From NCBI GenBank assembly GCA_965249105.1, contig OZ252219.1:192190-256189 (forward strand): a stretch of DNA of 64,000 bases. The letters are read 5' to 3'. This DNA comes from Vicinamibacterales bacterium. GTDB taxonomy: Bacteria > Acidobacteriota > Vicinamibacteria > Vicinamibacterales > UBA8438. Of the stretch, positions 24,733 through 54,406 are shown in pieces. Both the position numbers and the translations under genes were made by a program. Under the pieces are notes generated by a model. That model made no database searches, was not told the DNA's origin, and was given only the letters and a program-made list of their open reading frames with translations. Within the stretch, counting starts at the first letter, position 1, and every line of letters begins with the position of its first letter.

Positions 24733-24779
24733 TGGTGAGCCGCCGGGGACTCGAACCCCAAACCCGCAGATTAAGAGTC
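24733..24779 (-). repeat. Copy A of the tRNA-Lys(CTT) 3' end (47 nt, exact)
   Basis: GACTCTTAATCTGCGGGTTTGGGGTTCGAGTCCCCGGCGGCTCACCA is identical to the 3' 47 nt of the intact gene at 54331-54406, in the same orientation. There is no D-arm or 5' acceptor strand. Confidence 0.85.
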
Positions 24780-24877
24780 GCCAACGGAATCGCAAACAGC
24801 TCAATATTCTAAGCGTTTTCGATCATCAGTGTTGCAGAACGTGGCAGAGCGAGGCACCTCGACGCAACCTGGGTAGA

Positions 24878-26314
24878 TTCAAACGGTCGTCGCAACACCT
24901 CAACGGTGAGGAGTTGCGATGGGAACACCGAAACGTCGTCGGTCACCCCGTGCGGGACGTCTTCCGATGCGGTCGCCGGGTCGTCCCACGGCGGGACGCC
25001 GTGAGCATCGGCGTCGGTTCTGGGAGGCGATCGCCTGCGGGTTGTCCAGCGAAGAGGCGGCGCTGGGGGCCGGCGTGTCCCAGCCGGTCGGAACGAGATG
25101 GTTCCGCGAAAGTGGAGGCATGCCGCCGATCAGCCTGGCCCTTCTGTCGGGGCGCTACCTGTCGTTTGCCGAGCGAGACGAGATCGCCATCTTGCACGCC
25201 CAGCACTGCGGGGTTCGTGATATCGCTCGGCGAATCAGCCGGTCCCCGTCGACCATCTCTCGGGAGCTCCGTCGCAATGCGGCAACCCGCAGTGGCGGAC
25301 TCGAGTATCGCGCGACGACCGCGCAGTGGCACGCCGACCTGAAGGCGAAAAGACCGCAGGTGGCGAAGCTCGCTGCACACGACGAACTGCGCCGGTACGT
25401 GCAAGACCGACTCGCCGGCAGGATTACGGCCGCCGACGGGACGAGGGTGCCTGGTCCCCATGTGCACTGGAACGGTCGCCGCCACGGGCGCCGTCAAGAC
25501 CGACGCTGGGCGGCGTCATGGAGTCCTGAGCAAATTGCCAACAGACTCAAGGTCGACTTCCCCGATGAGGAGTCGATGCGGATCTCCCACGAGGCCATCT
25601 ACCAGGCGCTCTACGTGCAGGGACGAGGGGCACTGCGACGCGACCTGGTGGCGTGCTTGCGGACCGGCCGGGCGCTGCGCGTGCCAAGAGCACGGACACG
25701 AGGACGCGGCAAGGCGTTCGTCACTGCCGAAATCATGATCAGCAAGCGCCCCGCCGAAGCAGACGATCGGGCGGTCCCAGGACACTGGGAAGGTGACCTG
25801 ATTGTCGGACTGGGGAGCTCTGCGATTGGGACCCTCGTGGAACGCACCAGCCGATTCACGAGGCTGCTGCATCTGCCTCGCATGGATGACTATGGGCAGC
25901 CTCGGATCAAGAACGGTCCCGCCCTGGCGGGGCATGGTGCCGAGGCCGTCCGAGACGCCATCGCGTCGTCGATCATCACGCTGCCCACGCAGCTTCGCCG
26001 TTCACTGACATGGGACCAAGGCGCCGAGATGGCTCAACACGTTCAACTCCGAATCGACACCGGTCTGCCAATCTACTTCTGCGACCCACACAGCCCCTGG
26101 CAACGCGGCACGAACGAGAACACCAACGGCCTGCTGCGGCAGTACTTTCCCAAAGGCACCGACCTGTCCAGACACTCTCGTGATGATCTTGACGCCGTTG
26201 CTGCTGCTCTCAACAGTCGCCCCCGCAAGACCCTCGGCTGGAAGACACCCGCGGAGGCACTTGGCGATCACCTATGCTCAATCACACAACGCGGTGTTGC
26301 GACGACACCTTGAA
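24878..26314 (+). mobile_element. IS30-family insertion sequence (~1.44 kb)
   Basis: Imperfect terminal inverted repeats TTCAAACGGTCGTCGCAACACC (24878-24899) and GGTGTTGCGACGACACCTTGAA (26293-26314), 19/22 complementary, enclose the transposase ORF. Confidence 0.8.
24919..26313 (+). CDS. IS30-family transposase
   Basis: 464 aa. ..PGHWEGDLIVG.. and ..PIYFCDPHSPWQRGTNENTNGLLRQYFPKGTDL.. are hallmark IS30 DDE-region motifs. Confidence 0.9.
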   Translation: MGTPKRRRSPRAGRLPMRSPGRPTAGRREHRRRFWEAIACGLSSEEAALGAGVSQPVGTRWFRESGGMPPISLALLSGRYLSFAERDEIAILHAQHCGVRDIARRISRSPSTISRELRRNAATRSGGLEYRATTAQWHADLKAKRPQVAKLAAHDELRRYVQDRLAGRITAADGTRVPGPHVHWNGRRHGRRQDRRWAASWSPEQIANRLKVDFPDEESMRISHEAIYQALYVQGRGALRRDLVACLRTGRALRVPRARTRGRGKAFVTAEIMISKRPAEADDRAVPGHWEGDLIVGLGSSAIGTLVERTSRFTRLLHLPRMDDYGQPRIKNGPALAGHGAEAVRDAIASSIITLPTQLRRSLTWDQGAEMAQHVQLRIDTGLPIYFCDPHSPWQRGTNENTNGLLRQYFPKGTDLSRHSRDDLDAVAAALNSRPRKTLGWKTPAEALGDHLCSITQRGVATTP

Positions 26315-26356
26315 CCCAAGCTGTGCGCAACCGCCAATTTGATGCCTGGGGTCCAC

Positions 26357-27349
26357 TCACGAATCGAGGATTCGCTTGGCCAGCCGCTCGGTGGCGTCGT
26401 GGTCATCGTCCACGCCTAGATCCCCGATGACCGCCAGAGCCTCCTCGCCACCGATGTAGTCCAATGCCTTAATCGTGTACCACCGGCAGTCCTCGTCCTC
26501 CTCGTCCCGATAGCGAGCCGACAGAACCGACACTGCCTCCGAAGCCCCGAGGCGCCCTACGGCATCGATGAGCACCGCCCGCCGGCCCCCGTCGCTTGTC
26601 GCCGGAAGCAGAGCCAAGATGGCCGCCGACGCCGAGCGGGACCCTGACAGCCCGATCCGGTGGAGATCGTTGAGTGACGCCGCCTCCAGCGCCGCGAGCT
26701 GTTCGTCCAGACCAGAATGGGGCGATGCGTGGAAGTAGCTCCGGTTGAGCTGGGAGAGAGTCTCCTGTGCGCCCTCCACGAGCAGCCGCATCAGCCCCTG
26801 CTTGGCTTCATCCTGCCGTCCCATTCCCGCGTTATAGGACCCGTAGTAGTTGTGAAGGCGGAGGCTAACCGGTTGTGCCTCGGCGGCCCCGTTCCGCACC
26901 TGGAGTTCCAGGGTCATGAACCCGTAGAAGAGCGTTGAGCCCATAATAACTTGGCGACTCTCCAGATAGATGTCTGTAACGACGCCGCCGATGTGCCACT
27001 GCTTAGCTCCCGCCCCTGGCGGACGAAAGCCCATGGCTGTTGCCTCGGTTCGCAGCGACTCGGTGAGCATCGTCGCGAGGTCGATTTGCTCGTTGAGCTT
27101 GTATTCGGGGCCTCGGGAAAAGAAGCCGCCACCACCTCGGCGGACGATTTTCTCCCCTCGGTCATACCCAGCCTCGATGGTGCCGATCTCCAGGGACGGC
27201 GCCGACGCAGGGTCGAACACCGCCGTAGTAATCGTGTTGTCGGTGCTGTAGCCGTCCGCGAGGTCCAGCTCCTTCATGGTGGCCTGCGCGCCCACTATCG
27301 CGGGACACACGACCAACCCGAGCAACAGGCCAAGGCGCACGTTCTTCAT
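26357..27349 (-). CDS. Exported protein with C-terminal HEAT-like repeats
   Basis: 330 aa. Signal peptide MKNVRLGLLLGLVVCPAIVGAQA. C-terminal ..RRAVLIDAVGRLGASEAVSVLSARYRDEE..WYTIKALDYIGGEEALAVIGDL... Confidence 0.6.
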   Translation of the reverse strand: MKNVRLGLLLGLVVCPAIVGAQATMKELDLADGYSTDNTITTAVFDPASAPSLEIGTIEAGYDRGEKIVRRGGGGFFSRGPEYKLNEQIDLATMLTESLRTEATAMGFRPPGAGAKQWHIGGVVTDIYLESRQVIMGSTLFYGFMTLELQVRNGAAEAQPVSLRLHNYYGSYNAGMGRQDEAKQGLMRLLVEGAQETLSQLNRSYFHASPHSGLDEQLAALEAASLNDLHRIGLSGSRSASAAILALLPATSDGGRRAVLIDAVGRLGASEAVSVLSARYRDEEDEDCRWYTIKALDYIGGEEALAVIGDLGVDDDHDATERLAKRILDS

Positions 27350-27618
27350 TATTCCCCCTGATACGCGCGTCGACCACGGCAGGCGGCCAGGCGCGGCTTC
27401 TTACGCTGCTATCCTAGCGCGTTGCCGGGTCGCTTTGCCCTTGAAAGACCGCACCCTGTCTGGTTTGTCACGTCGTGTCACATGGACATACACGGGTGCG
27501 ATCTCTTGCGCACGCCCGATGCCTAAGTGCTGGCCCACAACTTGCTCAGGCAATCGTGGTCGTGCAGATCAGGGCCGCAGGTACGCCCGTGAGTGATCGC
27601 TCGTAAACTATTCAGGCC

Positions 27619-30441
27619 ATGTCTCCAAACGCGGGCCTCCACATGGGGCCCACAGTCGCGATGGTCATCGGGATGAGCCTGCTCATCTCGGTCTCCGCCT
27701 CCGCGCAGCCAGGCACCACGGTTGTGGTCGCGCCGTTTACCAATCTCAGCCAACAGACCACCGACGATTGGATCGGCGCCGGCATTGTCGAGACGGTCTC
27801 GAGCGACCTGCAGAACGCCGGCCTGACCGTCATGGGCCGTCTGGGGAGCGATGCTGACTGGTTGGTCGACGGTGGCTTTCAGCGGATTGGCAACCTCCTT
27901 CGCATTACGGCCAGTGTCACCGACGGCGCGACCGGGAAGGTTACCTACAGCACGAGGGTCGATGGTACGTTCCGAAACCTCTTCGACCTGCAGGACGAAG
28001 TCGGCGCCGCACTCGCAGCGTGGCTCCTGGCGGCTTCGACCGTGTCGACAACTTCGACGCCGCCGGCACAGCTCACGCCGGCAGCGCCTGCGGCGCAAGC
28101 CGAGAACAAGGGCGACGTCACGGGGTTTCTGGCTTTGGGGGAGTCACGCTCCGGTGAGGAGCCGCGCAAGGTAGACACCGCGACGACTCGTGAGCGTCAT
28201 GGTGGTGGCGGATTCCGGGCGGCCCCGGTGCCGGGACGGCCGACCGCCGTCGTCATGCGAACCGACAGTCCACCGCAGATAGACGGTCGTCTCGACGATT
28301 CGGTGTGGGAGAACGCCACACACATCACGGATTTCCTTCAGATCGTACCTGAGGAAGGCGCTCCGGGGTCGGAAGAGACCGAGGTCTGGATGACCTATGA
28401 CAGCGACCATCTGTATTTCGCGTTCTATGCCCATTACGCTGATCCGGGAATAGTGCGCGTGAATTGGGCCGACCGTGAAGAGATCCGCGGTGATGATCGG
28501 ATGGCGGTGTTGTTCGACCCGTTTCTCGATCAGCAGCGGGCGTATCAGTTCGAGGTGAACGGCTATGGCGTCCAGGCTGACTCCCTCGTGAACGCCGATG
28601 GCAGCACGGGATTCTCGCGTTTTAGCTCGAGCTCTTCGGTCATACGCGGCAGCGGCTCCCGCGGGGGCGGAGGAGGCAGCGGCCTGGCCAGCTCGGGGCA
28701 GTTCGGCATCCGCGGAGACGAGTCATGGGACGCGCTCTTCGACACTGGTGGTCGACTCGTCGAGGACGGGTGGACGGCGGAGATGAGGATTCCGTTCAAG
28801 AGCCTCAGGTATCCGTCGGGGTCTTCCGGGGAGGCTCATTCCTGGGGTTTCCAGATCACGCGCGTCATTCGCGGCAAGTCGGAAGTCCAATCGTGGTCAC
28901 CGATTTCACGAGGCGTGGCCGGACAGCTCACCCAGTTCGGGCAGCTCGACGGGCTGTCGGAGCTGTCGGCCAGCCGCAACCTCGAATTGTTGCCTGAGGT
29001 CACCGGCTTCCGATTCGGTTCGCTCGACACGGCCAGCGGCGAGTTCGACGTGGGCAGTCCGGAGGGCGATGTAGGGGTTGGCATCAAGTATGGAATCACC
29101 CCGAACCTGACCGCCGACGTCACCTTCAATCCTGATTTCTCCCAGATCGAGTCGGACCGACCACAGATTGCCACCAACCAACGTTTCGCGTTGTTCTTCC
29201 CCGAGCAGCGGCCCTTCTTCCTCGAGGGCCAGGAGATCTTCCAGACGGCGACGCCACTCACGCTGGTGCACACGCGGACGGTCATCGATCCCCGCGTGGG
29301 CGCGAAGCTGACCGGAAAGGTTGGTCAGACGACCCTCGGCGTCATGGTGGCCGACGACATGGCGGCCGGTCGTCTCGATGACCACGACGACCCACGGTTT
29401 GGCACGACGGCGCAGACGTTCATCGGTCGCGCGCGGTATGACCTCTATTCAGAGTCGTATGTCGGCGCGATCATGACGGCCCGCGAATTCGGTGCCGACT
29501 ACAACCGGGTAGCTGGGGTCGATGGGCGCTTCCGTCTGGGGCGGACACATCGGGTGGGTTTCCTCGCAGTGGCATCGGAGACCCAGGACGCGGAGCTGGG
29601 CCCGCTGTCCGGGCCGGCGTTCGAGGCGGATTTCGCGCGTCAGGGTCGCAATCTGAGCTACAGCGCGTCGTATAGCAGTATCGATCCGGAGTTCGAGACC
29701 CTCACCGGGTTCCTGCCCCGGGTCGATCTCCGGCAGGCGAGCGCCACCGCGGGGTATCGGTGGTGGCCTGAATCGACGCTTCTGAACTGGGGACCATCGG
29801 TCACCTACCTGCGGCTCTACGACCACGCCGGTGTGCTTCAGGACGAGCAGTTCCAGGGGGCCGCCAGCTTCTCTTTCCGCAACAACATCTTGTTGAGGGG
29901 TTCGATAAACCGCGATCTCGAGCAGTTCCAGCAGGTCGACTTCCGAAAGACGGGGTACGGGTTCTTTGGCGTCATCAGCTTACGACTCGTCTCTCTGTAC
30001 GGGGGCTACAATTGGGGCGACGGCATTCTCTACGATGAGGTCAACCCGTACGTCGGGCGGTCGAAGATGGGGAACATCAACCTCCGTCTTCAAGCGACGT
30101 CCCGGTTGCGCGCCGAGCTCACCACCGTCCTCAGCGACTTCGTCAATCCGCTGGACGACACGGAGGTGTTCGATGTGAAGATTTTCCGCAGCCGGACGAC
30201 CTATCAGTTCACCGACCGGCTGGCGCTCCGTCACATCATGGAGCACAATACCCGGGACGGCACGCTCGGGAACAACATCCTCATGACCTATCGCATCAAC
30301 GCCGGAACAGTCGTGTTTCTGGGCTACGACGATCGTTTCCAGCGGGGCAACCAGATCGAGGACGCGATGATGCCGACCATGGACCTGCAACGGACCAACC
30401 GGGCCTTCTTTGGCAAGCTCTCCTACCTGTTCCGATACTGA
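27619..30441 (+). CDS. Large exported/outer-membrane-type protein (TolB-N-like module, CBM9/DOMON-like module, DUF5916-like beta-rich domain)
   Basis: 940 aa. ..VVAPFTNLSQQTTDDWIGAGIVETVSSDL.., ..PPQIDGRLDDSVWENATHI.., and an aromatic C-terminus ..FFGKLSYLFRY typical of beta-barrels. The family names are by eye. Confidence 0.7.
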   Translation: MSPNAGLHMGPTVAMVIGMSLLISVSASAQPGTTVVVAPFTNLSQQTTDDWIGAGIVETVSSDLQNAGLTVMGRLGSDADWLVDGGFQRIGNLLRITASVTDGATGKVTYSTRVDGTFRNLFDLQDEVGAALAAWLLAASTVSTTSTPPAQLTPAAPAAQAENKGDVTGFLALGESRSGEEPRKVDTATTRERHGGGGFRAAPVPGRPTAVVMRTDSPPQIDGRLDDSVWENATHITDFLQIVPEEGAPGSEETEVWMTYDSDHLYFAFYAHYADPGIVRVNWADREEIRGDDRMAVLFDPFLDQQRAYQFEVNGYGVQADSLVNADGSTGFSRFSSSSSVIRGSGSRGGGGGSGLASSGQFGIRGDESWDALFDTGGRLVEDGWTAEMRIPFKSLRYPSGSSGEAHSWGFQITRVIRGKSEVQSWSPISRGVAGQLTQFGQLDGLSELSASRNLELLPEVTGFRFGSLDTASGEFDVGSPEGDVGVGIKYGITPNLTADVTFNPDFSQIESDRPQIATNQRFALFFPEQRPFFLEGQEIFQTATPLTLVHTRTVIDPRVGAKLTGKVGQTTLGVMVADDMAAGRLDDHDDPRFGTTAQTFIGRARYDLYSESYVGAIMTAREFGADYNRVAGVDGRFRLGRTHRVGFLAVASETQDAELGPLSGPAFEADFARQGRNLSYSASYSSIDPEFETLTGFLPRVDLRQASATAGYRWWPESTLLNWGPSVTYLRLYDHAGVLQDEQFQGAASFSFRNNILLRGSINRDLEQFQQVDFRKTGYGFFGVISLRLVSLYGGYNWGDGILYDEVNPYVGRSKMGNINLRLQATSRLRAELTTVLSDFVNPLDDTEVFDVKIFRSRTTYQFTDRLALRHIMEHNTRDGTLGNNILMTYRINAGTVVFLGYDDRFQRGNQIEDAMMPTMDLQRTNRAFFGKLSYLFRY

Positions 30442-30493
30442 CCCTGCTGCCCGTAACTGCCGCCGAACGCCGTCTGGTTCCCTAAGAAGAAAG

Positions 30494-30538
30494 TGGTGAG
30501 CCGCCGGGGACTCGAACCCCAAACCCGCAGATTATGAG
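30494..30538 (-). repeat. Copy B of the tRNA-Lys(CTT) 3' end (41 nt exact, 45 nt with one mismatch)
   Basis: TAATCTGCGGGTTTGGGGTTCGAGTCCCCGGCGGCTCACCA is identical to the intact gene and in the same orientation. The upstream sequence does not fold into D or anticodon arms. Confidence 0.85.
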
Positions 30539-30689
30539 AGCCAGGCGGGTCCGTCCGCCGACGTCCGAACACGTCTTTCCCGTTATGTTCTCGACTGATC
30601 GTCGTCCGGCTCGTGCTGCCAGGTTCGCCGGAGTCCAAGGGGGTGTTTTGGAAGGTCCGGGACCGATCTGGAGCCCCACCAGCGTGCGG

Positions 30690-31269: not shown

Positions 31270-31899
31270 TTACTGAGCGACGAAGCAGTAGAACAGGCCG
31301 TCGCCACCCGTCGCCCGTAGCAGTTCCTGGCTGCAAGCACGGCTATCGTGAGCGGAATTCCAAGCGGCACGGTCATGATGGCCGAGCCTGGCTTTTCCAT
31401 CGCCGCTGCTCGTCCAGTTGTTGCAGGTCATGTCTTCGCCAGCCGGGTACGCCGTGCCGTCCGGCTGGGAGCCAGTCAGCACATCATGCCGGTTCGGAGC
31501 GTATCCACTGCCGGGTATCCTTCTGCCTCTCTCGTCGATCACGGTCATGACGGTAAACCGATGTCCCATGCCGTGAAGCTCGTCGACGTTATTTCCGATC
31601 AGAGTGCCCTGCGCGTTATGCCATGGGCCCGTGCCGATACGGTCCCGCGCATTGACCGCGTTTGGGCCTTGCGTGCTGAGGTAAGCTCGCCAGGTACGGT
31701 CGTCGGCACCCACATCGGTCGCCAGCCTCTGACAGATCGCGTCGGCTCCGGCGAGACCCCCCAGATCGGCTCCTTCGCCCGAGCCATTGCTTGTAATGAA
31801 GAAAGTCATCGGAGCGGATTGTGGACCCTGCGTCAGGGCCAACCCGGAGCCGAGCAGAACGACCGAGATCACGCCAATAACAGTGACTGCCTTTCTCAT
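31270..31899 (-). CDS. Secreted Cys-containing protein, DUF1554/endostatin-like (C-type-lectin fold) pattern
   Basis: ATG 31899 with a GGGAGG Shine-Dalgarno and a signal peptide. ..LGGLAGADAICQRLA..WRAYLST..MTCNNWTSS..LFYCFVAQ at the C-terminus. The family call is tentative. Confidence 0.7.
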   Translation of the reverse strand: MRKAVTVIGVISVVLLGSGLALTQGPQSAPMTFFITSNGSGEGADLGGLAGADAICQRLATDVGADDRTWRAYLSTQGPNAVNARDRIGTGPWHNAQGTLIGNNVDELHGMGHRFTVMTVIDERGRRIPGSGYAPNRHDVLTGSQPDGTAYPAGEDMTCNNWTSSGDGKARLGHHDRAAWNSAHDSRACSQELLRATGGDGLFYCFVAQ

Positions 31900-31970
31900 G
31901 TGGTCCTCCCTTTCCTGATAACCCGAATGTTCAAACCTTTTCACCGAGCGACAGCCGTCCGATCTACTCG

Positions 31971-32111
31971 TCACTTTGGCCCGATTGCGCCGACGTCCCG
32001 GTCGAGCTTGGTGTCTCGGGCTCGATACACCTCACCCATGCCGCCTTCGCCGATCTTGGCGGTGGCAGATAACTCGGCGTTGTTGCGCAAATCGAAACTG
32101 GCGCCGAACAC
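31971..32111 (-). pseudogene. Ser/Thr kinase 5' stub (Gly-rich loop only)
   Basis: ..LSATAKIGEGGMGEVYRARDTKLDRDV then GAIGPK-stop. It has no VAIK Lys, HRD or DFG motif. A 28-nt segment (32037-32064) is identical to 50656-50683. Confidence 0.7.
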
Positions 32112-33846: not shown

Positions 33847-34133
33847 GTGAGGAGCATATACGTCCGACGGGAGAGTCGTCACTCGACCACTCGACGATTC
33901 TGGCCCGACCAGTTGCGCGGTAGCGGCCAACGTCGTTTGACCCGCATTAAAGCCCAGCCTGAAATCATCGTCGCTGAAGGTCGCATAGCGATCTGTCGAC
34001 GGAATAGCCGCTCAAATGCGTGCGAACGCGTTCTGACGGGCGTCACTGGTCACGCAGGTGGTAAGGGAACACCGAGTTCGGAAGCTACGTGCCGTTCGTG
34101 CACTTTCTCGTAAGACGGCTCAAGCCTGGCAGG

Positions 34134-36236: not shown

Positions 36237-36249
36237 CGGTGGTCTCCGG

Positions 36250-36294
36250 GTCCGGATCAGACGCAAACGCCTCGGGCAGAATCTTCAGCGCCAC
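36250..36294 (-). pseudogene. Ser/Thr kinase stub (subdomain II piece)
   Basis: VALKILPEAFASDPD, read from GTG 36294, overlaps the start region of the PQQ gene. Upstream the frame opens only about 12 codons earlier (..KRRTAREAQ). Confidence 0.6.
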
Positions 36295-42274: not shown

Positions 42275-42922
42275 ATGTCAACCCACGCCCAGCGGCTGAC
42301 CTGGCTGACGACGTTTTGCGTCGCGATGGCCTATGTCGAGTCTGCGGTGGTGGTCTATCTACGCACTATCTACTACCCGGAGGGGTTCAGCTTTCCGCTC
42401 ATCCTGATCGAGCCGCCCATGGGCGCGATCGAGGTCGGCCGGGAGGCGGCCACGCTGCTCATGCTGCTGGCGGTGGCGGCGGTGATGAGCACCGACCGGT
42501 GGGAGCGGTTCCTCTTCTTCGCCCTCAGCTTCGGCGTCTGGGACATCTTCTATTACGTGTGGCTGTGGGTCTTCCTGGGCTGGCCGCCGTCGCTACTGGC
42601 CTGGGACATCCTGTTCCTCATTCCGGTGCCCTGGATCGGTCCGGTCCTGGCGCCGGGCATCGTCAGCGTCGGGCTCATCGTCGGTTCGCTCCTGCTGCTC
42701 GAACGGCGATATCGAGGGCAGCGGCTCCACTTCCCAGCCCGCCTGTGGGGGCTGGCCGTGACCGGCGGCGTTCTAGTGCTCCTCTCCTTCATGCTGGACT
42801 TTCAGGTGGTCCTGGCGCAGGAGCCCCTGCCGCCCTTCCGCTGGGGCCTATTTGCCGTCGGCATCGGCTGTGGCGTGATTGCCCTCACTTTCGGCTTGCG
42901 CGGCCTCGACGCTGACACTTAA
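42275..42922 (+). CDS. Hypothetical polytopic membrane protein
   Basis: 215 aa, ~6 TM, Trp/Phe-rich (..FGVWDIFYYVWLWVFLGWPPSLLAWDILFLIPVPWIGP..). No family recognised. Confidence 0.6.
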   Translation: MSTHAQRLTWLTTFCVAMAYVESAVVVYLRTIYYPEGFSFPLILIEPPMGAIEVGREAATLLMLLAVAAVMSTDRWERFLFFALSFGVWDIFYYVWLWVFLGWPPSLLAWDILFLIPVPWIGPVLAPGIVSVGLIVGSLLLLERRYRGQRLHFPARLWGLAVTGGVLVLLSFMLDFQVVLAQEPLPPFRWGLFAVGIGCGVIALTFGLRGLDADT

Positions 42923-46078: not shown

Positions 46079-46081
46079 GCA

Positions 46082-47164
46082 CTAGTGTGGTGCGTTTAAC
46101 GCTTCTTTACACCGGTCGACCTTCGCGAGGATGGTGTCGGCATCCTTGGTCCAGATAAACGGCTTCGCATGCTGATTGTAATGAGTCAAGTAGTCGTGGA
46201 TCGCTCGCTCGAGCGCCGGCACGCTGGTGAAGGTACCCCGGCGGAGCCGCGTGCGAGTGATCTCCGCGAACCAGCGTTCCACCAGATTCAGCCAGGAGCT
46301 GCTGGTGGGCACGAAGTGAAAGTGCACGCGGGGATGGCGCGTGAGCCAGCGCCGCACCTGGGGACTCTTGTGGGCACTCAGGTTGTCCAAAATCAGGTGC
46401 AGCGGCTGATCGGGAGGCGTCGCGCGTTCCAGCCGCCGGAGGAACTGCACGAATTCTTGACTCCGGTGACGGCGGCGGCATTCGCCGATCACGACGCCAT
46501 CGAGCACGCGCAGTGCGGCATACAGCGTGGTCGTCCCGTAGCGGACGTAGTCATGGGTCTGGCGTTCGGGGACGCCGGGCCGCAGTGGCAACACCGGGCG
46601 CGTCCGGTCCAGCGCTTGGATCCCACTCTTCTCATCGACGCAAAACACCACCGCTTTGGCGGGTGGATTCAGATACAGCCCCACCACGTCGCGCAGCTTC
46701 TCGACGAAGTGGGGGTCGGTCGACAGCTTGAACTGCCCCACGCGGTGGGGCTGGAGGCCGTGTTGTCGCCAGATCTTACGAATCGTGCCGTCGCTCACGC
46801 CCTGCGCTTCCGCCAGGGCGCGACTACTCCAATGGGTGCCGGCCGGCGGGCGCGTCGTCAGGGTCGCGTCAACGATCGCCTGCACCTTCGTCAGGGTCAA
46901 GCGTGGGCGTCGGCCCGGACGCGTGGCGTCGCGGAGCACGCCCGGAACCCCCTCGGCCACAAACCGGCGCGCCCACAACCGCACCGTCATCCGACTGACG
47001 TGCAGCGTCCGGGCCACGACCATCGGCGAGGCCTGTTGCGCCAGCATCAACACGATCCGCGCCCGCCGCGCCACCTTCTGCGTCGTCGTCCCGCGCTCAG
47101 CCACCTGGGCCAACTGGGCTTGCTCGGTCGGCGATGCGTAGACACAGTACCGTTGAATGAACAT
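46082..47164 (-). CDS. IS630-family (Tc1/mariner-like) DDE transposase
   Basis: 360 aa. HTH N-terminus, then ..VFCVDEKSGIQALDR.., ..LHLILDNLSAHKS.., ..SSWLNLVERWFAEITR... Confidence 0.9.
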   Translation of the reverse strand: MFIQRYCVYASPTEQAQLAQVAERGTTTQKVARRARIVLMLAQQASPMVVARTLHVSRMTVRLWARRFVAEGVPGVLRDATRPGRRPRLTLTKVQAIVDATLTTRPPAGTHWSSRALAEAQGVSDGTIRKIWRQHGLQPHRVGQFKLSTDPHFVEKLRDVVGLYLNPPAKAVVFCVDEKSGIQALDRTRPVLPLRPGVPERQTHDYVRYGTTTLYAALRVLDGVVIGECRRRHRSQEFVQFLRRLERATPPDQPLHLILDNLSAHKSPQVRRWLTRHPRVHFHFVPTSSSWLNLVERWFAEITRTRLRRGTFTSVPALERAIHDYLTHYNQHAKPFIWTKDADTILAKVDRCKEALNAPH

Positions 47165-47235
47165 GCGCTACCGTACCAAACGGGCAGCGCAAAGTACAGC
47201 GTTTCGTGTACAGCTATTTCGTACTCAGGACACTA
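46083..47235 (-). mobile_element. IS630-family insertion sequence inserted at a CTAG (TA target)
   Basis: CTAG is present at both junctions (46082-46085 and 47233-47236). Both ends start TAGTGT... It encloses an intact 360-aa transposase. Confidence 0.8.
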
Positions 47236-49821
47236 GTACCCTTCGAGGACCGGGAATGCTTCGTCGGTCGGCAGAGGCTGCACGCCTAACGCGTTGAGCG
47301 TCATCGAGACCATTCGGTACCGCGCGACGGTCATTGCGATGCTCATCAGCTGGTGTGTGTCGTAGTGCTCGGCGAGGTCGTTCCACGTTGAATCGGAGAT
47401 CGCAGCGTCGCGGTACATCTCGTTCGCCGCTTCGATCAGTGAGAGCTCCTTCGGGCTCCAGCCCGGCGCATCCCCGCCTTGCGCAATCCAAACCGGATCC
47501 AGGCCACGATCACGCGCGCGCCCGACGCTCCCGACATGCTTGGCCCACTCGTAGACCGACTGCGCGTTCCAACCGGTGCGGAGAATCAGCAACTCCCGGT
47601 CGTGCGGTGTGAGTCGCGACCGTTCCGGGCTGAGGACGTATCCCTCATTGGCTTGCCACTGATCGGCGAGCGCCGCATGTTGGCGAAGCGTGCGCGAGAC
47701 CCGCAGCCCGTCGCCGTCGACCGGCTCGACCCGCGGCGTCGTGAGCGGTGGCTCGCGATCGGGTACCTCGAGCCGATAGGCGACCGACGTCGCAGGCAGC
47801 GGTAAGGAGGCAGCATCGTCGTCCGGCTGCACGCCAAGCGAGTTGAAGAGAATCGATTGCGCGGTGACATCAGCGACGGTCACGACCGCATCAACCAGGT
47901 TGTATCGGTCGTACTGCTCAGCCAGGCGCTGCCAGGTCCGGTCGGTCACCGACGAGTTGCGATACAGCTCGTCCGCCATGCCGATGAGCACGGCCTCGAA
48001 GTCACCCCATCCTTCCGCAGGTCCCTCCGCGACGCGCCGCACATCATCCTGGTCCAGACCCGCGTCGGCGGCATGACTCGCGTGGCTGGCCCACAGGCTA
48101 GCGCTTTGGGTCAACCAGGCTGTGCGTAGGATGAGCAGTGCCCGGTGGCGCGGTGACAGCGTCGACTCGTTGCTCACATAGTTGAGCAGCGGGAAGACCC
48201 GGTCTGCCATGCCAGGAGCGCGGATCAGGGTGTGCAGAGCGTTGTCCGGATTTCCACGGGCGCCGTACTGATCGACGACTTCCCGCTGTTCCGTGCTCCA
48301 TTCCGATTCCGGCAGTGGTGTTACCCGCGGCGGCGTCCAGCGCGGCATCGTAAGGATGTTGCCGGGCGGGTCGATGATCGCGAGCGCTGGCTCGATCCTG
48401 AAGAGGATCGAGTCGTCCTCCTCCGTCAACACGTACAGAAACCCGTCCGGGCCCTGGGTGACGTGCCGGATCCGCTGCTTGAGATCGGTGAGCAACCACT
48501 CCCGTCGGACTTCCTGCCCAAGGCGATTGAAGACCACCCGCTCGAGGTGTCCCGTCCGCTGCATTCGCCCGACCATCATCGAGCCCACGAACAGGCTTCC
48601 TTGCCACTTCGGGAAGTGCTTGCCGGTGTAGAAGGTCAGACCTGAGGGTCCGATCGACGGCCACCACATCAGTTCGGGGGCAGTGAACTCCGGCCGCCAC
48701 GGTGTGTCGGAGATCGGGGTGCCGCCGTATTCGCGGCTGTACGATGTGATCGGCCACCCGTAGTTGCCCCCCGGTTCGATAATGTTGGCTTCGTCTCCCC
48801 CCTGCACACCGTGCTCGGTCGCCCAGAGCTGGCCCGTGCCAGGGTGATGGGCGAGGCCGATCTGGTTGCGGTGGCCCATTGAGTAGATCTCCGGAAGGTA
48901 GCCCTCGCGGCCAGCGAACGGGTTGTCGGCGGCGGCGGTGCCGTCGTCCTTCAGGCGGAGCAGCTTGCCGAACTGCGTGCCGGGGTCCTGCGCATGCCCT
49001 CGGCGAACCCGGCGGCACCCGTCAGGAGGCGCTGCGACGCCATAGCCCCTTGGGGCACCGCCCACCGTCATGAACAGGGTGCCGTCTGGGGCCCAGAGGA
49101 GACGGGAGGCCGCAAAGCCCCTTTCCCAGCCATCAGCGACGAAGATGTCGCGCACTTCCGTCAACGCGGCGCCCTCGAGCCGACCGCGCGCGAGCGCGAC
49201 CGTCGAGCCTTCCTCGCCTTCGCATGTCTTCGGTTTCGAGTAGGTCAAGTAGACGAGGCTGTCATCCTCGGGGTGGACGACCACGTCCATCAAGCCCGCC
49301 ATCCGTGTCCGGAGGAACAGCTCGGGGACACCCGGGATGTCTTGGTCTAGGAGCTGGCCGTCACGGACGATCCGCAACGTGCCGCGATCGCGCTCGGTGA
49401 CCAGGATGTCGCCGTTCTTCCGAAACGCCATGCCCCACGGATGTGACAGGCCAACGGCGATCGGCACGACCCGAATCCGATACTCGGCGGTGTAGAGCAC
49501 GACCGGTTCGTGAGGTGGCGCGACCGCCGGGACAATGCTCGGTCCTTGCGCCAACGAGAGGCCGGCGCCTGCGAGCAGGATCGCAAACGCGAGCACGATG
49601 GTCCGAGCACCGTCGCCCAGCCTTCGGCAAAACAGCTTGTTGTCGTCCGGTGCCCACACAAGCATGCCCCCCCCATCTCGTGACACTCGCTCGCGATCCG
49701 CGTTGATGTTGGGCCGGTTCAGCTTCGTGTCGGTGGCCTGATAGACCTGCCCCATGCCGCCCTCTCCGATGAGGGCGGTCACGTCGTAGTGGGCGAGTCG
49801 TGAACCGACTGTCAGGGCCAT
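47233..49821 (-). CDS. Chimeric ORF: kinase stub, TM helix, PQQ-dependent sugar dehydrogenase (SGDH-type propeller), two AhpD/CMD-like domains
   Basis: 862 aa. MALTVGSRLAHYDVTALIGEGGMGQVYQATDTKLNRP, then ..TIVLAFAILLAGAGLSLAQG, ..GLSHPWGMAFRKNGDILVTERDRGTLRIV.., and ..LSPRHRALLILRTAWL.. and ..LTPHDRELLILRTGWNAQSVYEWAKHVG... The functional start may be internal (..GGMLVWAP..). Confidence 0.75.
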   Translation of the reverse strand: MALTVGSRLAHYDVTALIGEGGMGQVYQATDTKLNRPNINADRERVSRDGGGMLVWAPDDNKLFCRRLGDGARTIVLAFAILLAGAGLSLAQGPSIVPAVAPPHEPVVLYTAEYRIRVVPIAVGLSHPWGMAFRKNGDILVTERDRGTLRIVRDGQLLDQDIPGVPELFLRTRMAGLMDVVVHPEDDSLVYLTYSKPKTCEGEEGSTVALARGRLEGAALTEVRDIFVADGWERGFAASRLLWAPDGTLFMTVGGAPRGYGVAAPPDGCRRVRRGHAQDPGTQFGKLLRLKDDGTAAADNPFAGREGYLPEIYSMGHRNQIGLAHHPGTGQLWATEHGVQGGDEANIIEPGGNYGWPITSYSREYGGTPISDTPWRPEFTAPELMWWPSIGPSGLTFYTGKHFPKWQGSLFVGSMMVGRMQRTGHLERVVFNRLGQEVRREWLLTDLKQRIRHVTQGPDGFLYVLTEEDDSILFRIEPALAIIDPPGNILTMPRWTPPRVTPLPESEWSTEQREVVDQYGARGNPDNALHTLIRAPGMADRVFPLLNYVSNESTLSPRHRALLILRTAWLTQSASLWASHASHAADAGLDQDDVRRVAEGPAEGWGDFEAVLIGMADELYRNSSVTDRTWQRLAEQYDRYNLVDAVVTVADVTAQSILFNSLGVQPDDDAASLPLPATSVAYRLEVPDREPPLTTPRVEPVDGDGLRVSRTLRQHAALADQWQANEGYVLSPERSRLTPHDRELLILRTGWNAQSVYEWAKHVGSVGRARDRGLDPVWIAQGGDAPGWSPKELSLIEAANEMYRDAAISDSTWNDLAEHYDTHQLMSIAMTVARYRMVSMTLNALGVQPLPTDEAFPVLEGY

Positions 49822-50614: not shown

Positions 50615-50724
50615 CCAAGTATCAAACCCACTCGTGGCGTCCGATTCACCTCCCACATGCCGCCTTCGCCGATCTTGGCGGTGACGGTATACGGCCCGAG
50701 GGTGATGCCAGATGTGAGACTCAT
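50611..50724 (-). pseudogene. Ser/Thr kinase 5' stub
   Basis: MSLTSGITLGPYTVTAKIGEGGMWEVNRTPRVGLILG-stop. Its ATG overlaps the stop of the upstream small gene (ATGA). Confidence 0.7.
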
Positions 50725-50984: not shown

Positions 50985-52442
50985 TCAGTGCGCCTCGATG
51001 AACGCGGCGATCTGTTTCATCGCGGCATCACCTTTGTCGCCCATCTTCGACATGATGCTGCCGTGCGTGCGGTCCGCGATCTCGACTGTGTCCACTTGCG
51101 ACCCGGCGTTCGAGAGCTCCGTCTTCAGCCGCTCGTTCTGCGCGCGGCGCCAGTCTTCGTCGCCGTCGGCGTAGATCAGCCGCATCGGTGGCTTGCCGGC
51201 GCCGATATACGGAGTCACCGACGCCTTCAACCAGGCCGTTTCATCGGTGCCCCAGACCGTCTTGGGACGATCCCTGGCCGTCTCCTCGACGTAGAGGAAC
51301 GGACTGACCGGTAGGGCCCCGCGAATCGCCGAAAGCGCCAGCCCGTGCGCCTTCAAGTAGGACGGGTCGAGTGACATCAGTGCGGCGAGGTAGGCGCCCG
51401 CCGAGTGCCCCCCGACGAAGACCCGCTCGGGGTCGCCGCCATACTCGGCGATGTGCCGCTTGGTCCAAGCGAAGGCTGCCGCCGCGTCCTCCATGTGCGC
51501 CGGATGCATGACCTCCGGCGACAGGCGGTAGTTGGCGGTAACGACGCCGATGCCCTCGCCCACGAGGGTCGCAGCCAGCACTTCGCCGGTGCGCTTGTTA
51601 CCGCTCTGCAACGCACCGCCGTGGAAGAAGACGATAACCGGGGCGTTCGTGGCGTCCGCTGGCATCAAGACGTCCAGCTTGTCCTTGTCGTGCGGGTAGT
51701 CGACACCGTCGAGGTAGTCGATATCCCGGTGGGCGGTCACCCCGGTCTGGCCGGCCGCAGTCGCCGCCGCGAGCGTGGGCGTCTTTTCGGCGATAACTCG
51801 GGCGAGATCGGCCATGAACGCCTGTGCGACACCGGAGTCAATCTTGACGACCACTGGCCAGAACTTCCTCGTCGAATCCTCCAAAACGACCGTCAATCGG
51901 TTATCGACTTCAGCGATTTCCCCTTGTTGGTCAAGACTCATGAATCGGGGCATGACCCTCCATACCGCCTCGCCATACAGTCCTTTTTGGCCGTTCTGGT
52001 CGAGAGAATAAGCCGCGGTGCCGATCAATGAATCCATGCCATCTGTTTCGTTCGCGGGTGGCTTCGCGTTGATCACGCGAGCGAGGTCGGCTTGAAGCGT
52101 CCGAGCGTCCGACAGAGGCATCTTGACGATGACGGGCCAAAAGCCATCCCGGGTCGCTGGATCCTGCAAGACAACGATCAGGCGGTCGTCACCACCTTGG
52201 GCACTCCCTCCGTTGTAGTTGGGATGAACCGCCCAATGGGTTTCCTCCGGCAGAACGACGAGCCCCGACGTAGATAGATCGTAGGGCCACACGGTAATGA
52301 GGGCCTCCATGTTCGTTTCTTCCACGCCCTGGGCCGCAACCTCCCCCAGTGTCCAGGTGGGCATGGTGAGGACCGTAAGAAGAACGAGCGCGAACATTCC
52401 GAAAGGGGGTACCCGAGCATTGTCATTGCCCTGCAAGATCAT
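50985..52442 (-). CDS. Alpha/beta hydrolase (esterase/lipase-type, HGG and GxSxG) with a duplicated N-terminal domain
   Basis: 485 aa. ..VIVFFHGGALQSGNK.., ..VFVGGHSAGAYLA.. (nucleophile elbow). The N-terminal ~85-aa module is present twice. Confidence 0.8.
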   Translation of the reverse strand: MILQGNDNARVPPFGMFALVLLTVLTMPTWTLGEVAAQGVEETNMEALITVWPYDLSTSGLVVLPEETHWAVHPNYNGGSAQGGDDRLIVVLQDPATRDGFWPVIVKMPLSDARTLQADLARVINAKPPANETDGMDSLIGTAAYSLDQNGQKGLYGEAVWRVMPRFMSLDQQGEIAEVDNRLTVVLEDSTRKFWPVVVKIDSGVAQAFMADLARVIAEKTPTLAAATAAGQTGVTAHRDIDYLDGVDYPHDKDKLDVLMPADATNAPVIVFFHGGALQSGNKRTGEVLAATLVGEGIGVVTANYRLSPEVMHPAHMEDAAAAFAWTKRHIAEYGGDPERVFVGGHSAGAYLAALMSLDPSYLKAHGLALSAIRGALPVSPFLYVEETARDRPKTVWGTDETAWLKASVTPYIGAGKPPMRLIYADGDEDWRRAQNERLKTELSNAGSQVDTVEIADRTHGSIMSKMGDKGDAAMKQIAAFIEAH

Positions 52443-52533: not shown

Positions 52534-52707
52534 TTAGAATCGCTGCGTCAGGCCGGGATCTTGGGCGATATGCTCGGGAAGCACCTTGATGGCGACGATG
52601 CGGTCGAGGCGGGTGTCGCGGGCCTTGTAGACCTCGCCCATGCCCCCGGCGCCGAGCGGGGCGTCGATCTCGTAGGGTCCGAGTGTTGCGCCAGCTTTCA
52701 GAGGCAT
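52534..52707 (-). pseudogene. Ser/Thr kinase 5' stub (subdomains I-II only)
   Basis: [60 protein letters not shown]. It is the longest stub and still lacks everything from helix C onward. Confidence 0.75.
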
Positions 52708-52735: not shown

Positions 52736-53296
52736 CTACGGTGATGGTGTGACTGGGATCGCTACCGGGGCACAGCACGCGATTGCATACCTGAACCCAC
52801 AGCTTGCCTGGAGAAACCCAGACGCGTTCGCGACTATACCGCTCGCCTGGTTGTCGAGAAAGCCGCCGCAACTTAGGAACTTGTGCGCATCGGATGCGTT
52901 CCCTACCGAGGATCCCGCAATCCCCGTGGCGGTATCCTGGGAAAACCAGGCGCCACCCTCGGCCGCTGGATCATGGTGAAGCACCTGGCTTGTTGGAATC
53001 ACCCATCCCCGTTCGTCACGGCGCCCTTCCACCACTGATCGAACAATCTCTGACGTGACGCATGCCCGTGCATTCGGTGCGACTTCACTCGCGCAGAAGG
53101 CGTGCATCGCTGAATACCCTTGGAGCGCTCCGCCCTGGACCTGGATAGACCCATCTGTGATGGTCGTGGTCAGTCCGACCCATCGGCGTTCCGCTTCTGT
53201 CTCTGATTGCGTTGCACCTAGATCTTGCGCGAACGCCGCTTGACATCCGAACACGCACACGAATGTGCCAAGAACCGTTGCTGACACTGACTTCAT
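52736..53296 (-). CDS. Secreted Cys-rich hypothetical protein
   Basis: 186 aa. Signal peptide MKSVSATVLGTFVCVFGCQAAFAQ, 8+ Cys, ends ..SCGFRYAIACCAPVAIPVTPSP. It may be distantly related to 31270-31899. Confidence 0.55.
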   Translation of the reverse strand: MKSVSATVLGTFVCVFGCQAAFAQDLGATQSETEAERRWVGLTTTITDGSIQVQGGALQGYSAMHAFCASEVAPNARACVTSEIVRSVVEGRRDERGWVIPTSQVLHHDPAAEGGAWFSQDTATGIAGSSVGNASDAHKFLSCGGFLDNQASGIVANASGFLQASCGFRYAIACCAPVAIPVTPSP

Positions 53297-53500
53297 GATG
53301 CTCCTCTCGGCTGCTGCGCGGTGCCAAACGCGAGTGGCATGGCTAGATGCTGCATTCTACCGCCTTGGGACGAAACCGCGAATGTGCGATTGGCGGGGGT
53401 TTGGACCCTGAAACCCACTTCTAAGGGGCAACCCCCAGAAGGGCAATTTTGGCCTCAAATGGGCCAATGTTTACAGGGGTCTACAAGGGTTGCTTTGGGA

Positions 53501-54294
53501 GGGCATTGTCAGGTTAACTCTCCGCCCGGCACAATGCCGGGATGAACACTCGCCGGCCCCGCTACCATCGGCATCGCTTTCCGCCTGAAATCATCAGCCA
53601 TGCCGTCTGGCTCTACCACAGATACTGCATGAGCTTGCGGGATGTTGAGGATTCGCTGGCCGAACGAGGAATCATCGTGTCCTACGAAACCGTTCGCCAG
53701 TGGTGCGGGAAGTTCGGCCCCGACGACGCTCGGCAGTTGAAGCGACGACAGGGTCGACTCGGAGATACGTGGTTCCTGGACGAAGTCTTCGTGACGATCA
53801 ACGGTCAGCGCCAGTATCTCTGGCGCGCGGTGGATCAAGACGGTGACCTGATCGACATCCTCGTACAACCCTGTCGGGACGGGCGTGCAGCGCGGAGATT
53901 CTTTCGCCGACTGTTGAAGAGTCAGCGACAGGAACCCGTGCGGCTCGTGACTGACAAGCTGGGCAGCTACCGTGTCGCACATCGGGACCTCATGCCGCTG
54001 GTCACCCATGACACGAGGCGCTACGCGAACAATCGCGCCGAAGTCTCGCATCAACCCACGCGACAACGCGAACGTCAGATGCAAGGCTTCACGTCATCCG
54101 ACCACGCGCAGCGGTTCTTGCACGTGCACGGTGTCATTCAGAATCTATTTCGCGTGGGTCGACACCTCCTCAGGGCGGCTCATCATCGGATGTTGCGAGC
54201 ACGGTCGTTCACCGTGTGGGCCCAGGTGACGGCAGCCTGATCCTGGGATCAACTCGCCTCATTCTGGCCCGGACTCGTTAAGTTGATAGTGCCC
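53501..54294 (+). mobile_element. IS6-family insertion sequence (~0.8 kb)
   Basis: Inverted repeats GGGCATTGTCAGGTTAAC (53501-53518) and GTTAAGTTGATAGTGCCC (54277-54294), 14/18 complementary. It ends 36 bp from tRNA-Lys. Confidence 0.8.
53542..54240 (+). CDS. IS6-family transposase
   Basis: 232 aa. ..YHRHRFPPEIISHAVWLYHRY.., ..DTWFLDEVFVTINGQRQYLWRAVDQDGDLIDILV.., ..NNRAEVSHQPTRQRERQMQGF... Confidence 0.9.
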   Translation: MNTRRPRYHRHRFPPEIISHAVWLYHRYCMSLRDVEDSLAERGIIVSYETVRQWCGKFGPDDARQLKRRQGRLGDTWFLDEVFVTINGQRQYLWRAVDQDGDLIDILVQPCRDGRAARRFFRRLLKSQRQEPVRLVTDKLGSYRVAHRDLMPLVTHDTRRYANNRAEVSHQPTRQRERQMQGFTSSDHAQRFLHVHGVIQNLFRVGRHLLRAAHHRMLRARSFTVWAQVTAA

Positions 54295-54330
54295 CCCAAA
54301 CCTTGAATCGCCGGTTTCCTTAGGAAAAAG

Positions 54331-54406
54331 TGGTGAGCCGCCGGGGACTCGAACCCCAAACCCGCAGATTAAGAGTCTGCTGCTCTGCCAGTTGAGCTAG
54401 CGGCCC
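54331..54406 (-). tRNA. tRNA-Lys (anticodon CTT), intact, CCA encoded
   Basis: GGGCCGCTAGCTCAACTGGCAGAGCAGCAGACTCTTAATCTGCGGGTTTGGGGTTCGAGTCCCCGGCGGCTCACCA. All four arms pair, and the anticodon loop is CTCTTAA. Confidence 0.9.

Follow-up and report, generated by a model that had tools for sequence, protein, structure and literature searches.

The locus described here is an intact tRNA-Lys(CTT) gene together with two partial copies of its 3' end, located in a 64,000-nucleotide (nt) stretch of contig OZ252219.1 from a Vicinamibacterales bacterium (the window). ARAGORN identified four tRNA genes in the window, all on the minus strand (Table 1). Three of these are clustered beside the gene for LigD, and the synteny of the loci that we fetched indicates that the order LigD, tRNA-Arg(TCG), tRNA-Arg(CCG), and tRNA-Lys(CTT) is conserved across the Vicinamibacterales. 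LigD also assigns the host to this order of the Acidobacteriota, with matches to Vicinamibacterales metagenome-assembled genomes (MAGs) reaching 73% amino acid identity. The sequence of tRNA-Lys(CTT) is 100% conserved in relatives.

Loci from relatives were retrieved using near-identical protein cluster members as search handles, and three lineages were compared. Lineage W consists of the window and its strains. An identical 111-amino-acid holin-like protein retrieved 10 loci. Lineage T is a sister lineage with about 96% identity, whose contigs were reached via a near-identical variant of the HbpS-like protein. Lineage S is a sister species (L082 to L084) with 87 to 92% nucleotide identity to the window.

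Direct reading and a repeat finder gave the same description of the partial copies. The last 47 nt of tRNA-Lys recur exactly in copy 3, while copy 2 repeats 41 nt exactly, or 45 nt with one mismatch, and both have the orientation of the intact gene. Identity begins at tRNA position 30 in copy 3 and at position 32 in copy 2, which in both cases is in the anticodon stem-loop, and it continues to position 76. These boundaries lie at a canonical crossover sublocation, that of the anticodon-centered class. The mismatch in copy 2 (T35 to A) is specific to the window strain; other strains read CTCTT. The trailers of the three copies (CTTTTTCCTAAGG, CTTTCTTCTTAGG, and TTTCTTTCTAGG) are related over about 13 nt. 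The intact gene, both copies, their shared orientation, and the trailers had been described correctly in an earlier reading of the sequence alone (the original prediction), which attributed the copies to integrase-mediated insertion into the 3' end of tRNA-Lys.

An exact 47-nt repeat within 64 kb is not due to chance. Outside tRNA-Lys genes, the 28- to 33-nt 3' end of tRNA-Lys was found in about 2 Mb of related loci only at the two orthologous scar positions. The 47-nt sequence is therefore not a dispersed repeat, a possibility that the original prediction had raised against itself. Although tRNA genes are sometimes duplicated and three tRNAs are clustered here, it is extremely improbable that the copies are leftovers of duplicated tRNA-Lys genes, or a dispersed repeat, rather than integration scars: both fragments start no more than 3 nt apart in the anticodon stem-loop and keep the entire 3' end, no further occurrence of the sequence was seen in the window or in related loci, and an empty site identifies copy 2 as the native 3' half of the gene.

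Insertion into tRNA-Lys and other alleles at the site

This empty site comes from two genomes of lineage T (L100 and L102; about 96% identical). In both, window positions 27570-30538 and 54313-64000 are contiguous via a single intact tRNA-Lys, through which 30538 and 54313 are joined. The intact gene is followed by flank 2 and then directly by the DUF5916 gene. Thus, these genomes have an empty attachment site (attB) that lacks exactly the bracketed DNA, namely, the 23.8 kb between copy 2 and the intact tRNA gene (segment B). This precise absence identifies copy 2 as the displaced native 3' half of tRNA-Lys, accompanied by its native flank, in full agreement with the principle of mapping islands by a tRNA gene and its displaced fragment (PMC4383910). 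The window also has the arrangement that defines tRNA islands, an intact tRNA gene with a displaced, co-oriented fragment of the same gene. We conclude that segment B is an insertion into tRNA-Lys. The original prediction had proposed searching relatives for empty sites, and those found here, along with the allelic integrases described below, uphold its interpretation of the copies as att-type scars for the 23.8-kb segment. It had envisaged two adjacent accessory segments; the second, of about 5.7 kb, does not stand because it contains resident genes. The crossover took place in the anticodon loop of tRNA-Lys, and the native 3' half (copy 2) was displaced together with the native trailer and the resident DUF5916 gene. 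The incoming DNA supplied a new 3' half, such that, under the standard model, the 3' 45 nt of the present gene came from the island.

Relatives with 96 to 98% identity over the aligned flanks carry at least five alleles at this one tRNA-Lys: an empty site, islands with integrases of two families, a polyketide synthase/nonribosomal peptide synthetase (PKS/NRPS) gene, and the integrase-less island of the window. All of the allele loci are 96 to 98% identical to the window except L003 and L008, which are more distant MAGs with about 64 to 69% LigD amino acid identity. The site is empty in L100 and L102. In L101 and L103, it is occupied by a family-2 tyrosine integrase gene that is truncated by IS21 and whose open reading frame (ORF) ends 15 nt from the tRNA 3' end. 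L107 and L109 carry a family-1 integrase (408 amino acids, full length in L109) and a trailer with two TGACACCCTAACT repeats. The family-1 trailer recurs in L003 and L008, accompanied by an integrase fragment in L003 and by an intact integrase in L008 that is 72% identical to that of L107 and L109. Integrases of the two families share 33 to 39% identity, in the catalytic region only, and in each allele the integrase gene lies near the tRNA 3' end and converges with the tRNA. We considered and rejected the idea that island B is itself a family-1 element, since the arm-type repeat TGACACCCTAACT is absent from the window. Finally, L106 and L108 have a 2537-amino-acid PKS/NRPS gene between the tRNA and the same IS6 element that is found in the window, a position that makes the biosynthetic gene cargo at the hotspot. 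This hybrid gene is located at 1729-9342 of both loci, and the two strains are about 97 to 98% identical to the window.

The neighboring tRNA-Arg(CCG) has left a scar as well. Just outside the interval covered by the original prediction is a decayed 3' fragment of this gene. The fragment begins in the anticodon stem, and a 21-nt spacer that resembles the native Arg-Lys spacer of L005 separates it from tRNA-Lys. In L003 and L005, tRNA-Arg(CCG) and tRNA-Lys are only 82 and 26 nt apart, respectively. Lineages W and T both retain the fragment in a decaying state, S has a truncated version, and in L001 a separate 3' copy of tRNA-Arg lies 4.5 kb downstream of the tRNA-Arg(CCG) of that locus. The fragment of the window brackets 1.55 kb of DNA. 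This neighboring tRNA is thus also an attachment site. Across the genomes compared, the LigD-Arg-Arg-Lys cluster acts as a site-specific integration hotspot.

One contig (ERZ28763718:ctg123597) contains both L088 and L107, with a tRNA-Lys carrying the family-1 integrase and copy 2 situated about 168 kb apart. Past the HEAT gene, the contig continues abruptly into a tRNA-Pro(GGG) locus that contains an integrase fragment. Such a layout points to large IS-mediated rearrangements or to a very long array of islands. The integrase fragment of L088 was evaluated as a remnant of the small segment next to copy 3 and was rejected, as the tRNA-Pro locus has been joined by IS-mediated rearrangement.

IS6 and the missing integrase

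Integrase genes are present in the allelic islands of L008, L101, L103, L107, and L109, and we searched for a counterpart in the window. Pfam searches of 30 larger ORFs, picked mainly by length and by GC content at third codon positions, yielded no integrase, resolvase, phage, or conjugation domains, leaving the transposases of insertion sequences (IS) as the sole recombinases. Among 130 left-over six-frame ORFs from 24.7-54.3 kb, no Pfam match to Phage_integrase, Resolvase, or Recombinase was obtained at E ≤ 0.05. Five integrases from allelic islands returned only noise when compared to the window with phmmer and tblastn, and PHROGs had no match for 10 ORFs of unknown or weak annotation, of which nine lie in the interval. 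Pfam detected no phage structural, packaging, or lysis genes; the match to the PF04020 "holin" family is a small membrane protein with four transmembrane segments (TMS) and no PHROGs match. Relaxase, type IV secretion, and coupling-protein domains were likewise not detected by Pfam in the large and left-over ORFs of 24.7-54.3 kb. The original prediction had reported no integrase, excisionase, conjugation, or phage gene and had suggested profile and translated searches of 24.7-54.4 kb for recombinase remnants. The four methods agree with it on integrase, phage, and conjugation genes, and no remnant was found. It had also remarked that an IS6 element takes the usual position of the integrase, which is where the allelic islands keep their tyrosine integrases.

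Base composition was uninformative. The GC content of the island is 0.636, and both GC content and tetranucleotide usage of the segments are within or just below the values of same-size core windows, such that the comparison proposed earlier did not discriminate between island and core. Deviating composition is not an obligatory feature of islands. Moreover, the test is blind to exchange among related Vicinamibacterales, and it neither supports nor refutes a foreign origin.

The IS6-family element sits 37 nt from tRNA-Lys. Its assignment is based on a DDE transposase (Pfam DDE_Tnp_IS240, 1e-35; NCBIfam transpos_IS6, 206.6 bits versus a cutoff of 125), a length in the range of about 700 to 890 bp, and short terminal inverted repeats. 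The ends of the element are GGCATTGTCAGGTTAAC and GTTAAGTTGATAGTGCC, with the inverted repeats formed by GGCATTGTCAGGTTAAC and the reverse complement of GTTAAGTTGATAGTGCC, and its borders were set by the stop of homology with L089 at 53502 and with L106 at 54293. The 8-bp target duplication of a simple insertion is absent (TTTGGGAG versus CCCCAAAC). Insertion of IS6-family elements normally generates 8-bp repeats, which are lost when intramolecular replicative transposition deletes or inverts the neighboring DNA (PMC7986276). The lack of an 8-bp repeat at this element is therefore expected after intramolecular transposition. An inverted similarity between the two IS6 flanks was considered as an extended inverted repeat or an inversion footprint and was left as possibly due to chance.

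The left flank of IS6 is common to the window and L106/L108, whereas the right flank, on the tRNA side, differs. Because DNA on this side differs between strains, IS6 most likely deleted the integrase. What remains there is flank 1, the closest relative of which is the trailer of L101 and L103 (19/25, the best of the pairs from different alleles). BLAST homology with L101 reaches window position 54289, and the stretch overlaps the last codons of the family-2 integrase ORF in that locus. Island B may once have had an integrase of the L101/L103 type. IS6 would have landed in or beside this gene and removed it by intramolecular replicative transposition, after which the island could no longer excise; a 37-nt trailer and an IS6 lacking a target duplication would be what was left. 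Further erosion would have come from IS630, IS30, and other strain-specific IS insertions and deletions. Removal of the integrase by IS6, and with it immobilization of the island, is the most economical reading of these sequences. It also fits the old, immobilized islands of the original prediction, which we judge to be the right reading.

The alternative offered with it, an integration module not recognizable by eye, was not borne out. The evidence that bears on such a module concerns a direct repeat of about 27 nt at the inner ends of the island (53477-53503 and 30630-30655 (-)). Three loci (L089, L094, and L095) place the holin gene (window 31096-30638) immediately next to the sequence bordering IS6 in the window (53502-52554), with alignments overlapping by 18 nt (10371-10388 in these loci). 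The hybrid junction connects the holin gene to a 162-amino-acid ORF and a kinase. Its topology is that of a circle junction or a circular permutation of the island interior, and it could reflect tandem duplication with deletions, or short-repeat recombination. A new kind of recombinase that acted on the ~27-nt repeats or on the tRNA copies would bring the holin side of one repeat to the 162-amino-acid-ORF side of the other, as expected for a 22.9-kb circle, and the motif is not a dispersed repeat. However, the two repeats match at only about 21/27, with indels, and homology between the window and L089 extends only about 1 kb to either side of the junction. There is no candidate gene, given that large ORFs have metabolic or IS annotations or no match, and no ORF is conserved beside either repeat save the small holin-like and 186-amino-acid ORFs. 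Furthermore, allelic islands at the same tRNA hold ordinary tyrosine integrases. We therefore regard an unrecognized module as quite improbable. Scarcely better are the chances that the 22.9-kb interior once moved as a circle via a second site-specific system, its recombinase unrecognized or encoded elsewhere, with the tRNA scars marking an older carrier.

Erosion of the region can be followed among strains. Seven loci (L087, L088, L090-L093, and L096) are collinear with the window, mostly at 98 to 99% identity, and contain copy 2; L088 is 95% identical over DUF5916 and diverges past the HEAT gene. Copy 3 is complete in L090, L092, L093, and L096 and partial in L087 and L091, which have a deletion of 24755-27317. 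An IS5-like element is inserted in copy 2 at 30533/30534, the anticodon-loop position, in L081, L090, L093, and L096. In some W strains, IS3 and IS630 fragments are located between DUF5916 and copy 3. The IS30 element of the window is a strain-specific insertion, the uninterrupted target of which (GCGCACAG followed by GTTGCG) is retained in L092. According to blastn, a 4.95-kb block of segment B is absent in six loci (L087, L090-L093, and L096), where 42080 is joined to 37130. The block is at least partly present in L088, which starts at window position 39079 and is collinear to 34067. The scars themselves also vary. The substitution A38G occurs in both scars of L090, L092, L093, and L096 and in copy 2 of L087 and L091, while both window scars have A. 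Strain-specific substitutions of this sort fit neutral evolution of the scars, and the A38G common to both scars hints at gene conversion between the copies. The island is old relative to the radiation of the strains.

The original prediction had also noted IS elements in both segments, along with gene fragments. Transposases of IS30, IS630, and IS6 all score above the curated NCBIfam cutoffs, and four gene fragments were confirmed. These are 42-nt, minus-strand copies of a protein-kinase glycine loop (IGEGGMGEVY; Pkinase Pfam match), found by the repeat finder at 32023-32064, 49739-49780, 50642-50683, and 52625-52666 and 69 to 100% identical to the first of these. They are truncated kinase 5' ends that recur at rearrangement junctions; L089 has the full-length kinase. 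In the left core region, unrelated to the islands, there is an inverted repeat of 38 nt (11111-11148 and 11237-11274; 87% complementary, with 88 nt between the arms).

Table 1. Features of the window, ordered by position
Feature	Position	Strand	Basis
tRNA-Leu	2325-2411	-	ARAGORN
PEP_exosort gene (W), where T and S have a Flp/Fap pilin gene	22735-23265		
Sulfatase, 36 nt from copy 3	23330-24685	-	Pfam Sulfatase 1.8e-36
Copy 3, second att-type scar	24733-24779	-	Exact 47-nt repeat
IS30-family element, strain-specific simple insertion	24872-26337	+	NCBIfam transpos_IS30 246.3 bits vs cutoff 80
HEAT-repeat gene	26357-27349	-	Pfam HEAT_2 (weak); blastn to L098-L100, L102
DUF5916/CBM9-like gene, 940 aa, resident	27619-30441	+	Pfam; relatives' context
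Flank 2, native tRNA-Lys trailer up to DUF5916 stop codon	30442-30493	-	24/25 identical to L100/L102 trailer
Copy 2, displaced native tRNA-Lys 3' end, attR scar of island B	30494-30538	-	Repeat and empty-site comparison
Segment B, 23.8-kb island in tRNA-Lys	30539-54330	.	Precisely absent in L100, L102
Small 4-TMS holin-like protein, 111 aa	30690-31025	-	Pfam/NCBIfam
DUF1554-like ORF	31273-32031	-	Pfam/NCBIfam
PQQ dehydrogenase	32158-33930	-	Pfam/NCBIfam
PQQ dehydrogenase	34134-36266	-	Pfam/NCBIfam
SnoaL-like	36482-37009	-	Pfam/NCBIfam
4.95-kb block in B (CarboxypepD_reg protein, BON, LamG)	37131-42079	.	blastn of sister strains
CarboxypepD_reg protein	37478-39790	+	Pfam/NCBIfam
BON	39911-40684	-	Pfam/NCBIfam
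LamG	41239-42276	-	Pfam/NCBIfam
LVIVD	43430-44437	-	Pfam/NCBIfam
PQQ_2	44434-45825	-	Pfam/NCBIfam
IS630-family transposase, inside B	46082-47164	-	Pfam DDE_3; NCBIfam transpos_IS630 274.5 bits vs cutoff 100
GSDH-CMD	47233-49821	-	Pfam/NCBIfam
Esterase	50985-52442	-	Pfam/NCBIfam
186-aa ORF	52736-53296	-	
IS6-family element, 792 bp, transposase 53542-54240	53502-54293	+	Pfam, NCBIfam, homology ends
Flank 1, 37-nt trailer, probable remnant of island left arm	54294-54330	-	Trailer comparison
tRNA-Lys(CTT), intact, attachment target	54331-54406	-	ARAGORN and sequence
Decayed tRNA-Arg(CCG) 3' fragment, att-type scar	54428-54475	-	83% identity over 41 nt (repeat finder)
1.55-kb segment between tRNA-Arg(CCG) and displaced fragment	54476-56028	.	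Pfam
HbpS-like	54691-55167	+	Pfam
BON	55266-55814	-	Pfam
tRNA-Arg(CCG)	56029-56105	-	ARAGORN
tRNA-Arg(TCG)	56143-56219	-	ARAGORN

Copy 3 and the resident genes beside it

Copy 3 marks the far end of the smaller segment (segment A, 24780-30493), which the original prediction had also taken to be accessory. Reading away from the tRNA, the order in empty T genomes is tRNA-Lys, DUF5916, HEAT, Flp, and core, and in occupied T genomes it is copy 2, DUF5916, HEAT, Flp, and core. In W, copy 2 is followed by DUF5916, HEAT, IS30 (where present), 108 nt, copy 3, 36 nt, sulfatase, PEP_exosort, and core. In S, the order is tRNA-Lys, 3.4 kb of other genes, DUF5916, 104 nt, sulfatase, Flp, and core, with no scars. 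DUF5916 adjoins the intact tRNA-Lys in L100 and L102, and it adjoins the sulfatase in S (92% nucleotide identity, no scar). HEAT is resident in W and T and absent in S, and the sulfatase has 88.7% nucleotide identity to that of S. DUF5916 and HEAT neighbor tRNA-Lys as resident genes in the genomes with an empty site, and the 5.7-kb segment therefore does not constitute a discrete accessory island; its genes, apart from IS30, make up the resident flank. It follows that copy 3 is not just the former end of tRNA-Lys bordering on core genome. In the sampled relatives, both genes are resident whichever reading of copy 3 holds. The flank beside copy 3 had been taken for core genome, but the sulfatase side turned out to be variable, being deleted in T and having PEP_exosort in W versus Flp in T and S.

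Just upstream of DUF5916, homology breaks recurrently at 27570-27583: alignments begin at 27570 for L097 and lineage T and at 27583 for S. An insertion of 347 nt is found at 27569/27570 in L081 and other W strains.

Where copy 3 came from is less clear than the origin of copy 2. Copy 3 is absent in both S and T. Between the Flp gene and the HEAT stop codon, lineage T retains 48 nt of the sulfatase 3' end (L100 5376-5423, equivalent to window 23327-23374), which shows that T lost the copy-3-bearing interval by deletion and makes the absence of copy 3 from T uninformative. In S, the 104-nt spacer between DUF5916 and the sulfatase has no detectable counterpart in the 2.9-kb interval of the window. 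Among the fetched loci, there was no empty site for copy 3 or segment A, and none had tRNA-Lys directly followed by flank 3 and the sulfatase. Scans of JGI metagenomes for the tRNA end joined to flank 3 or to flank 2 gave no match; the lineage appears only in ENA and NCBI assemblies. Two sulfatase outgroups (L085, 66%; L086, 57%) proved unusable for polarizing the gene order on account of their unrelated, IS-rich contexts, and the DUF5916 homolog of L097 (84% identical) was set aside owing to its unrelated flanks. The sulfatase contexts of L085 and L086 hold integrase, resolvase, and ArdC genes, which suggests that the sulfatase family also travels on mobile elements.

Two histories of copy 3 were rated about equal. 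In the first, tRNA-Lys originally lay beside the sulfatase. Island A, containing flank 2, DUF5916, and HEAT, displaced copy 3, island B later displaced copy 2, and sister lineages lost copy 3 by deletion. Such serial insertion is conceivable, if somewhat doubtful. Copy 3 does resemble an attR in being co-oriented, in starting in the anticodon stem, and in having a trailer that resembles the native trailers. Moreover, the deletion in T runs from the HEAT stop to the sulfatase, exactly where copy 3 sits, and DUF5916 occurs in an unrelated context in L097. However, DUF5916 adjoins the sulfatase in S without a scar, and its divergence there (92% identity) is much like that of neighboring genes, which would require island A to predate the split of W, T, and S. 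The tRNA-Arg scar, which predates this split and is found in all three lineages, has decayed to 83% over 41 nt, whereas copy 3 is 47/47 identical, and even the younger copy 2 already carries one to three substitutions in some strains. In addition, segment A contained no integrase remnant detectable by Pfam, phmmer, or tblastn, and tRNA-Lys, flank 3, and the sulfatase were not seen in direct succession in any of the genomes.

In the second history, the native order was DUF5916, HEAT, and sulfatase, and copy 3 arrived late in W, either by secondary-site integration between HEAT and the sulfatase or by IS-mediated relocation of a scar. The delivering element would have been mostly deleted, leaving about 190 nt that include the tRNA-like arm. 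We consider a late arrival possible, at somewhat less than even chances. It would be consistent with the undecayed state of copy 3 and with its restriction to W-lineage strains in our sample. The interval between HEAT and the sulfatase has also been targeted by IS30, IS3, and IS630 in different strains, and IS630 abuts copy 2 in L098 and L099 as well. Yet no remnant of a delivering element was found, absence from T carries no information for the reason given above, and secondary-site integration is infrequent while the primary site is available.

Considering the region as a whole, we favor, with good though not full confidence, an account in which a tRNA hotspot received segment B, lost the integrase of this island in connection with IS6, and was eroded by IS elements, with older scars alongside. 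Several observations weigh against it. Copy 3 has no empty site, and its undecayed sequence fits poorly with a very old integration, considering that the placement of DUF5916 beside the sulfatase predates the S split. Tetranucleotide correlation to the core does not mark segment B as foreign, and the island has no phage or conjugation genes that would have carried it between cells. The putative integrase relic, of about 25 to 40 nt at roughly 70% identity, is suggestive and falls short of proof. The IS6 deletion was not observed but inferred from the missing duplication and the variation among strains. Lastly, the ~27-nt repeat and the hybrid junction of L089, L094, and L095 are not accounted for.

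Comparison with known systems

The feature in the window is of a known kind, namely, an integration hotspot at a tRNA gene, now eroded, with an integrase-less, IS-eroded island and older scars, and it calls for no new mechanism. It is a well-resolved example from the Vicinamibacterales, an abundant, under-studied soil lineage known here from MAGs only. The locus illustrates how an island may become fixed, through the probable loss of its integrase to IS6 and then piecemeal IS erosion. For island prediction, it also serves as a caution that a displaced tRNA fragment does not make all of the intervening DNA foreign.

Individual components have counterparts elsewhere. Phage Mx8, as cited in PMC4383910 (reference 24 therein), has its attP site at or within the 3' end of its integrase gene. 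The integrases of L101 and L103 seem to be arranged similarly, with an ORF that ends 15 nt from the tRNA and an attachment arm that overlaps the 3' end of the gene, while the window keeps only the relic of that arm. The IS6 element resembles those involved in IS6/IS26 adjacent deletions (Varani et al. 2021, PMC7986276) in having a length of 792 bp, no 8-bp repeat, and one constant and one variable flank. In contrast to those cases, the deletion here is inferred, the window has a single IS6 copy, and the setting is an acidobacterial chromosome rather than a resistance plasmid.

Tandem arrays also occur among the 3919 islands of Islander, with 125 arrays of two or more and 4 of three or more (PMC4383910). 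As in such arrays, several co-oriented fragments of one tRNA are found downstream of the intact gene, and the adjacent tRNA-Arg(CCG) is scarred too. Unlike in those arrays, no member keeps an integrase, and resident genes, not a second island, occupy the DNA between copies 2 and 3, so that the window probably does not qualify as a tandem island array.

The closest parallel is with single tRNA islands. Under the sublocation classes of Williams (2002), as cited in PMC4383910, the anticodon-centered class accounts for 2083/3919 islands in Islander, and 3' fragments are present in 3760/3919 (Hudson, Lau and Williams 2015, PMC4383910). Islander would reject the window island because it has no integrase, and the island further differs from those collected there in its lack of phage and conjugation genes, its host-like composition, and its heavy IS erosion. 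It is like them in that it restores an intact tRNA and has a co-oriented 3' fragment at its far end, the crossover maps to the anticodon loop, relatives have empty and alternatively filled sites, and allelic tyrosine integrases are encoded beside the tRNA.

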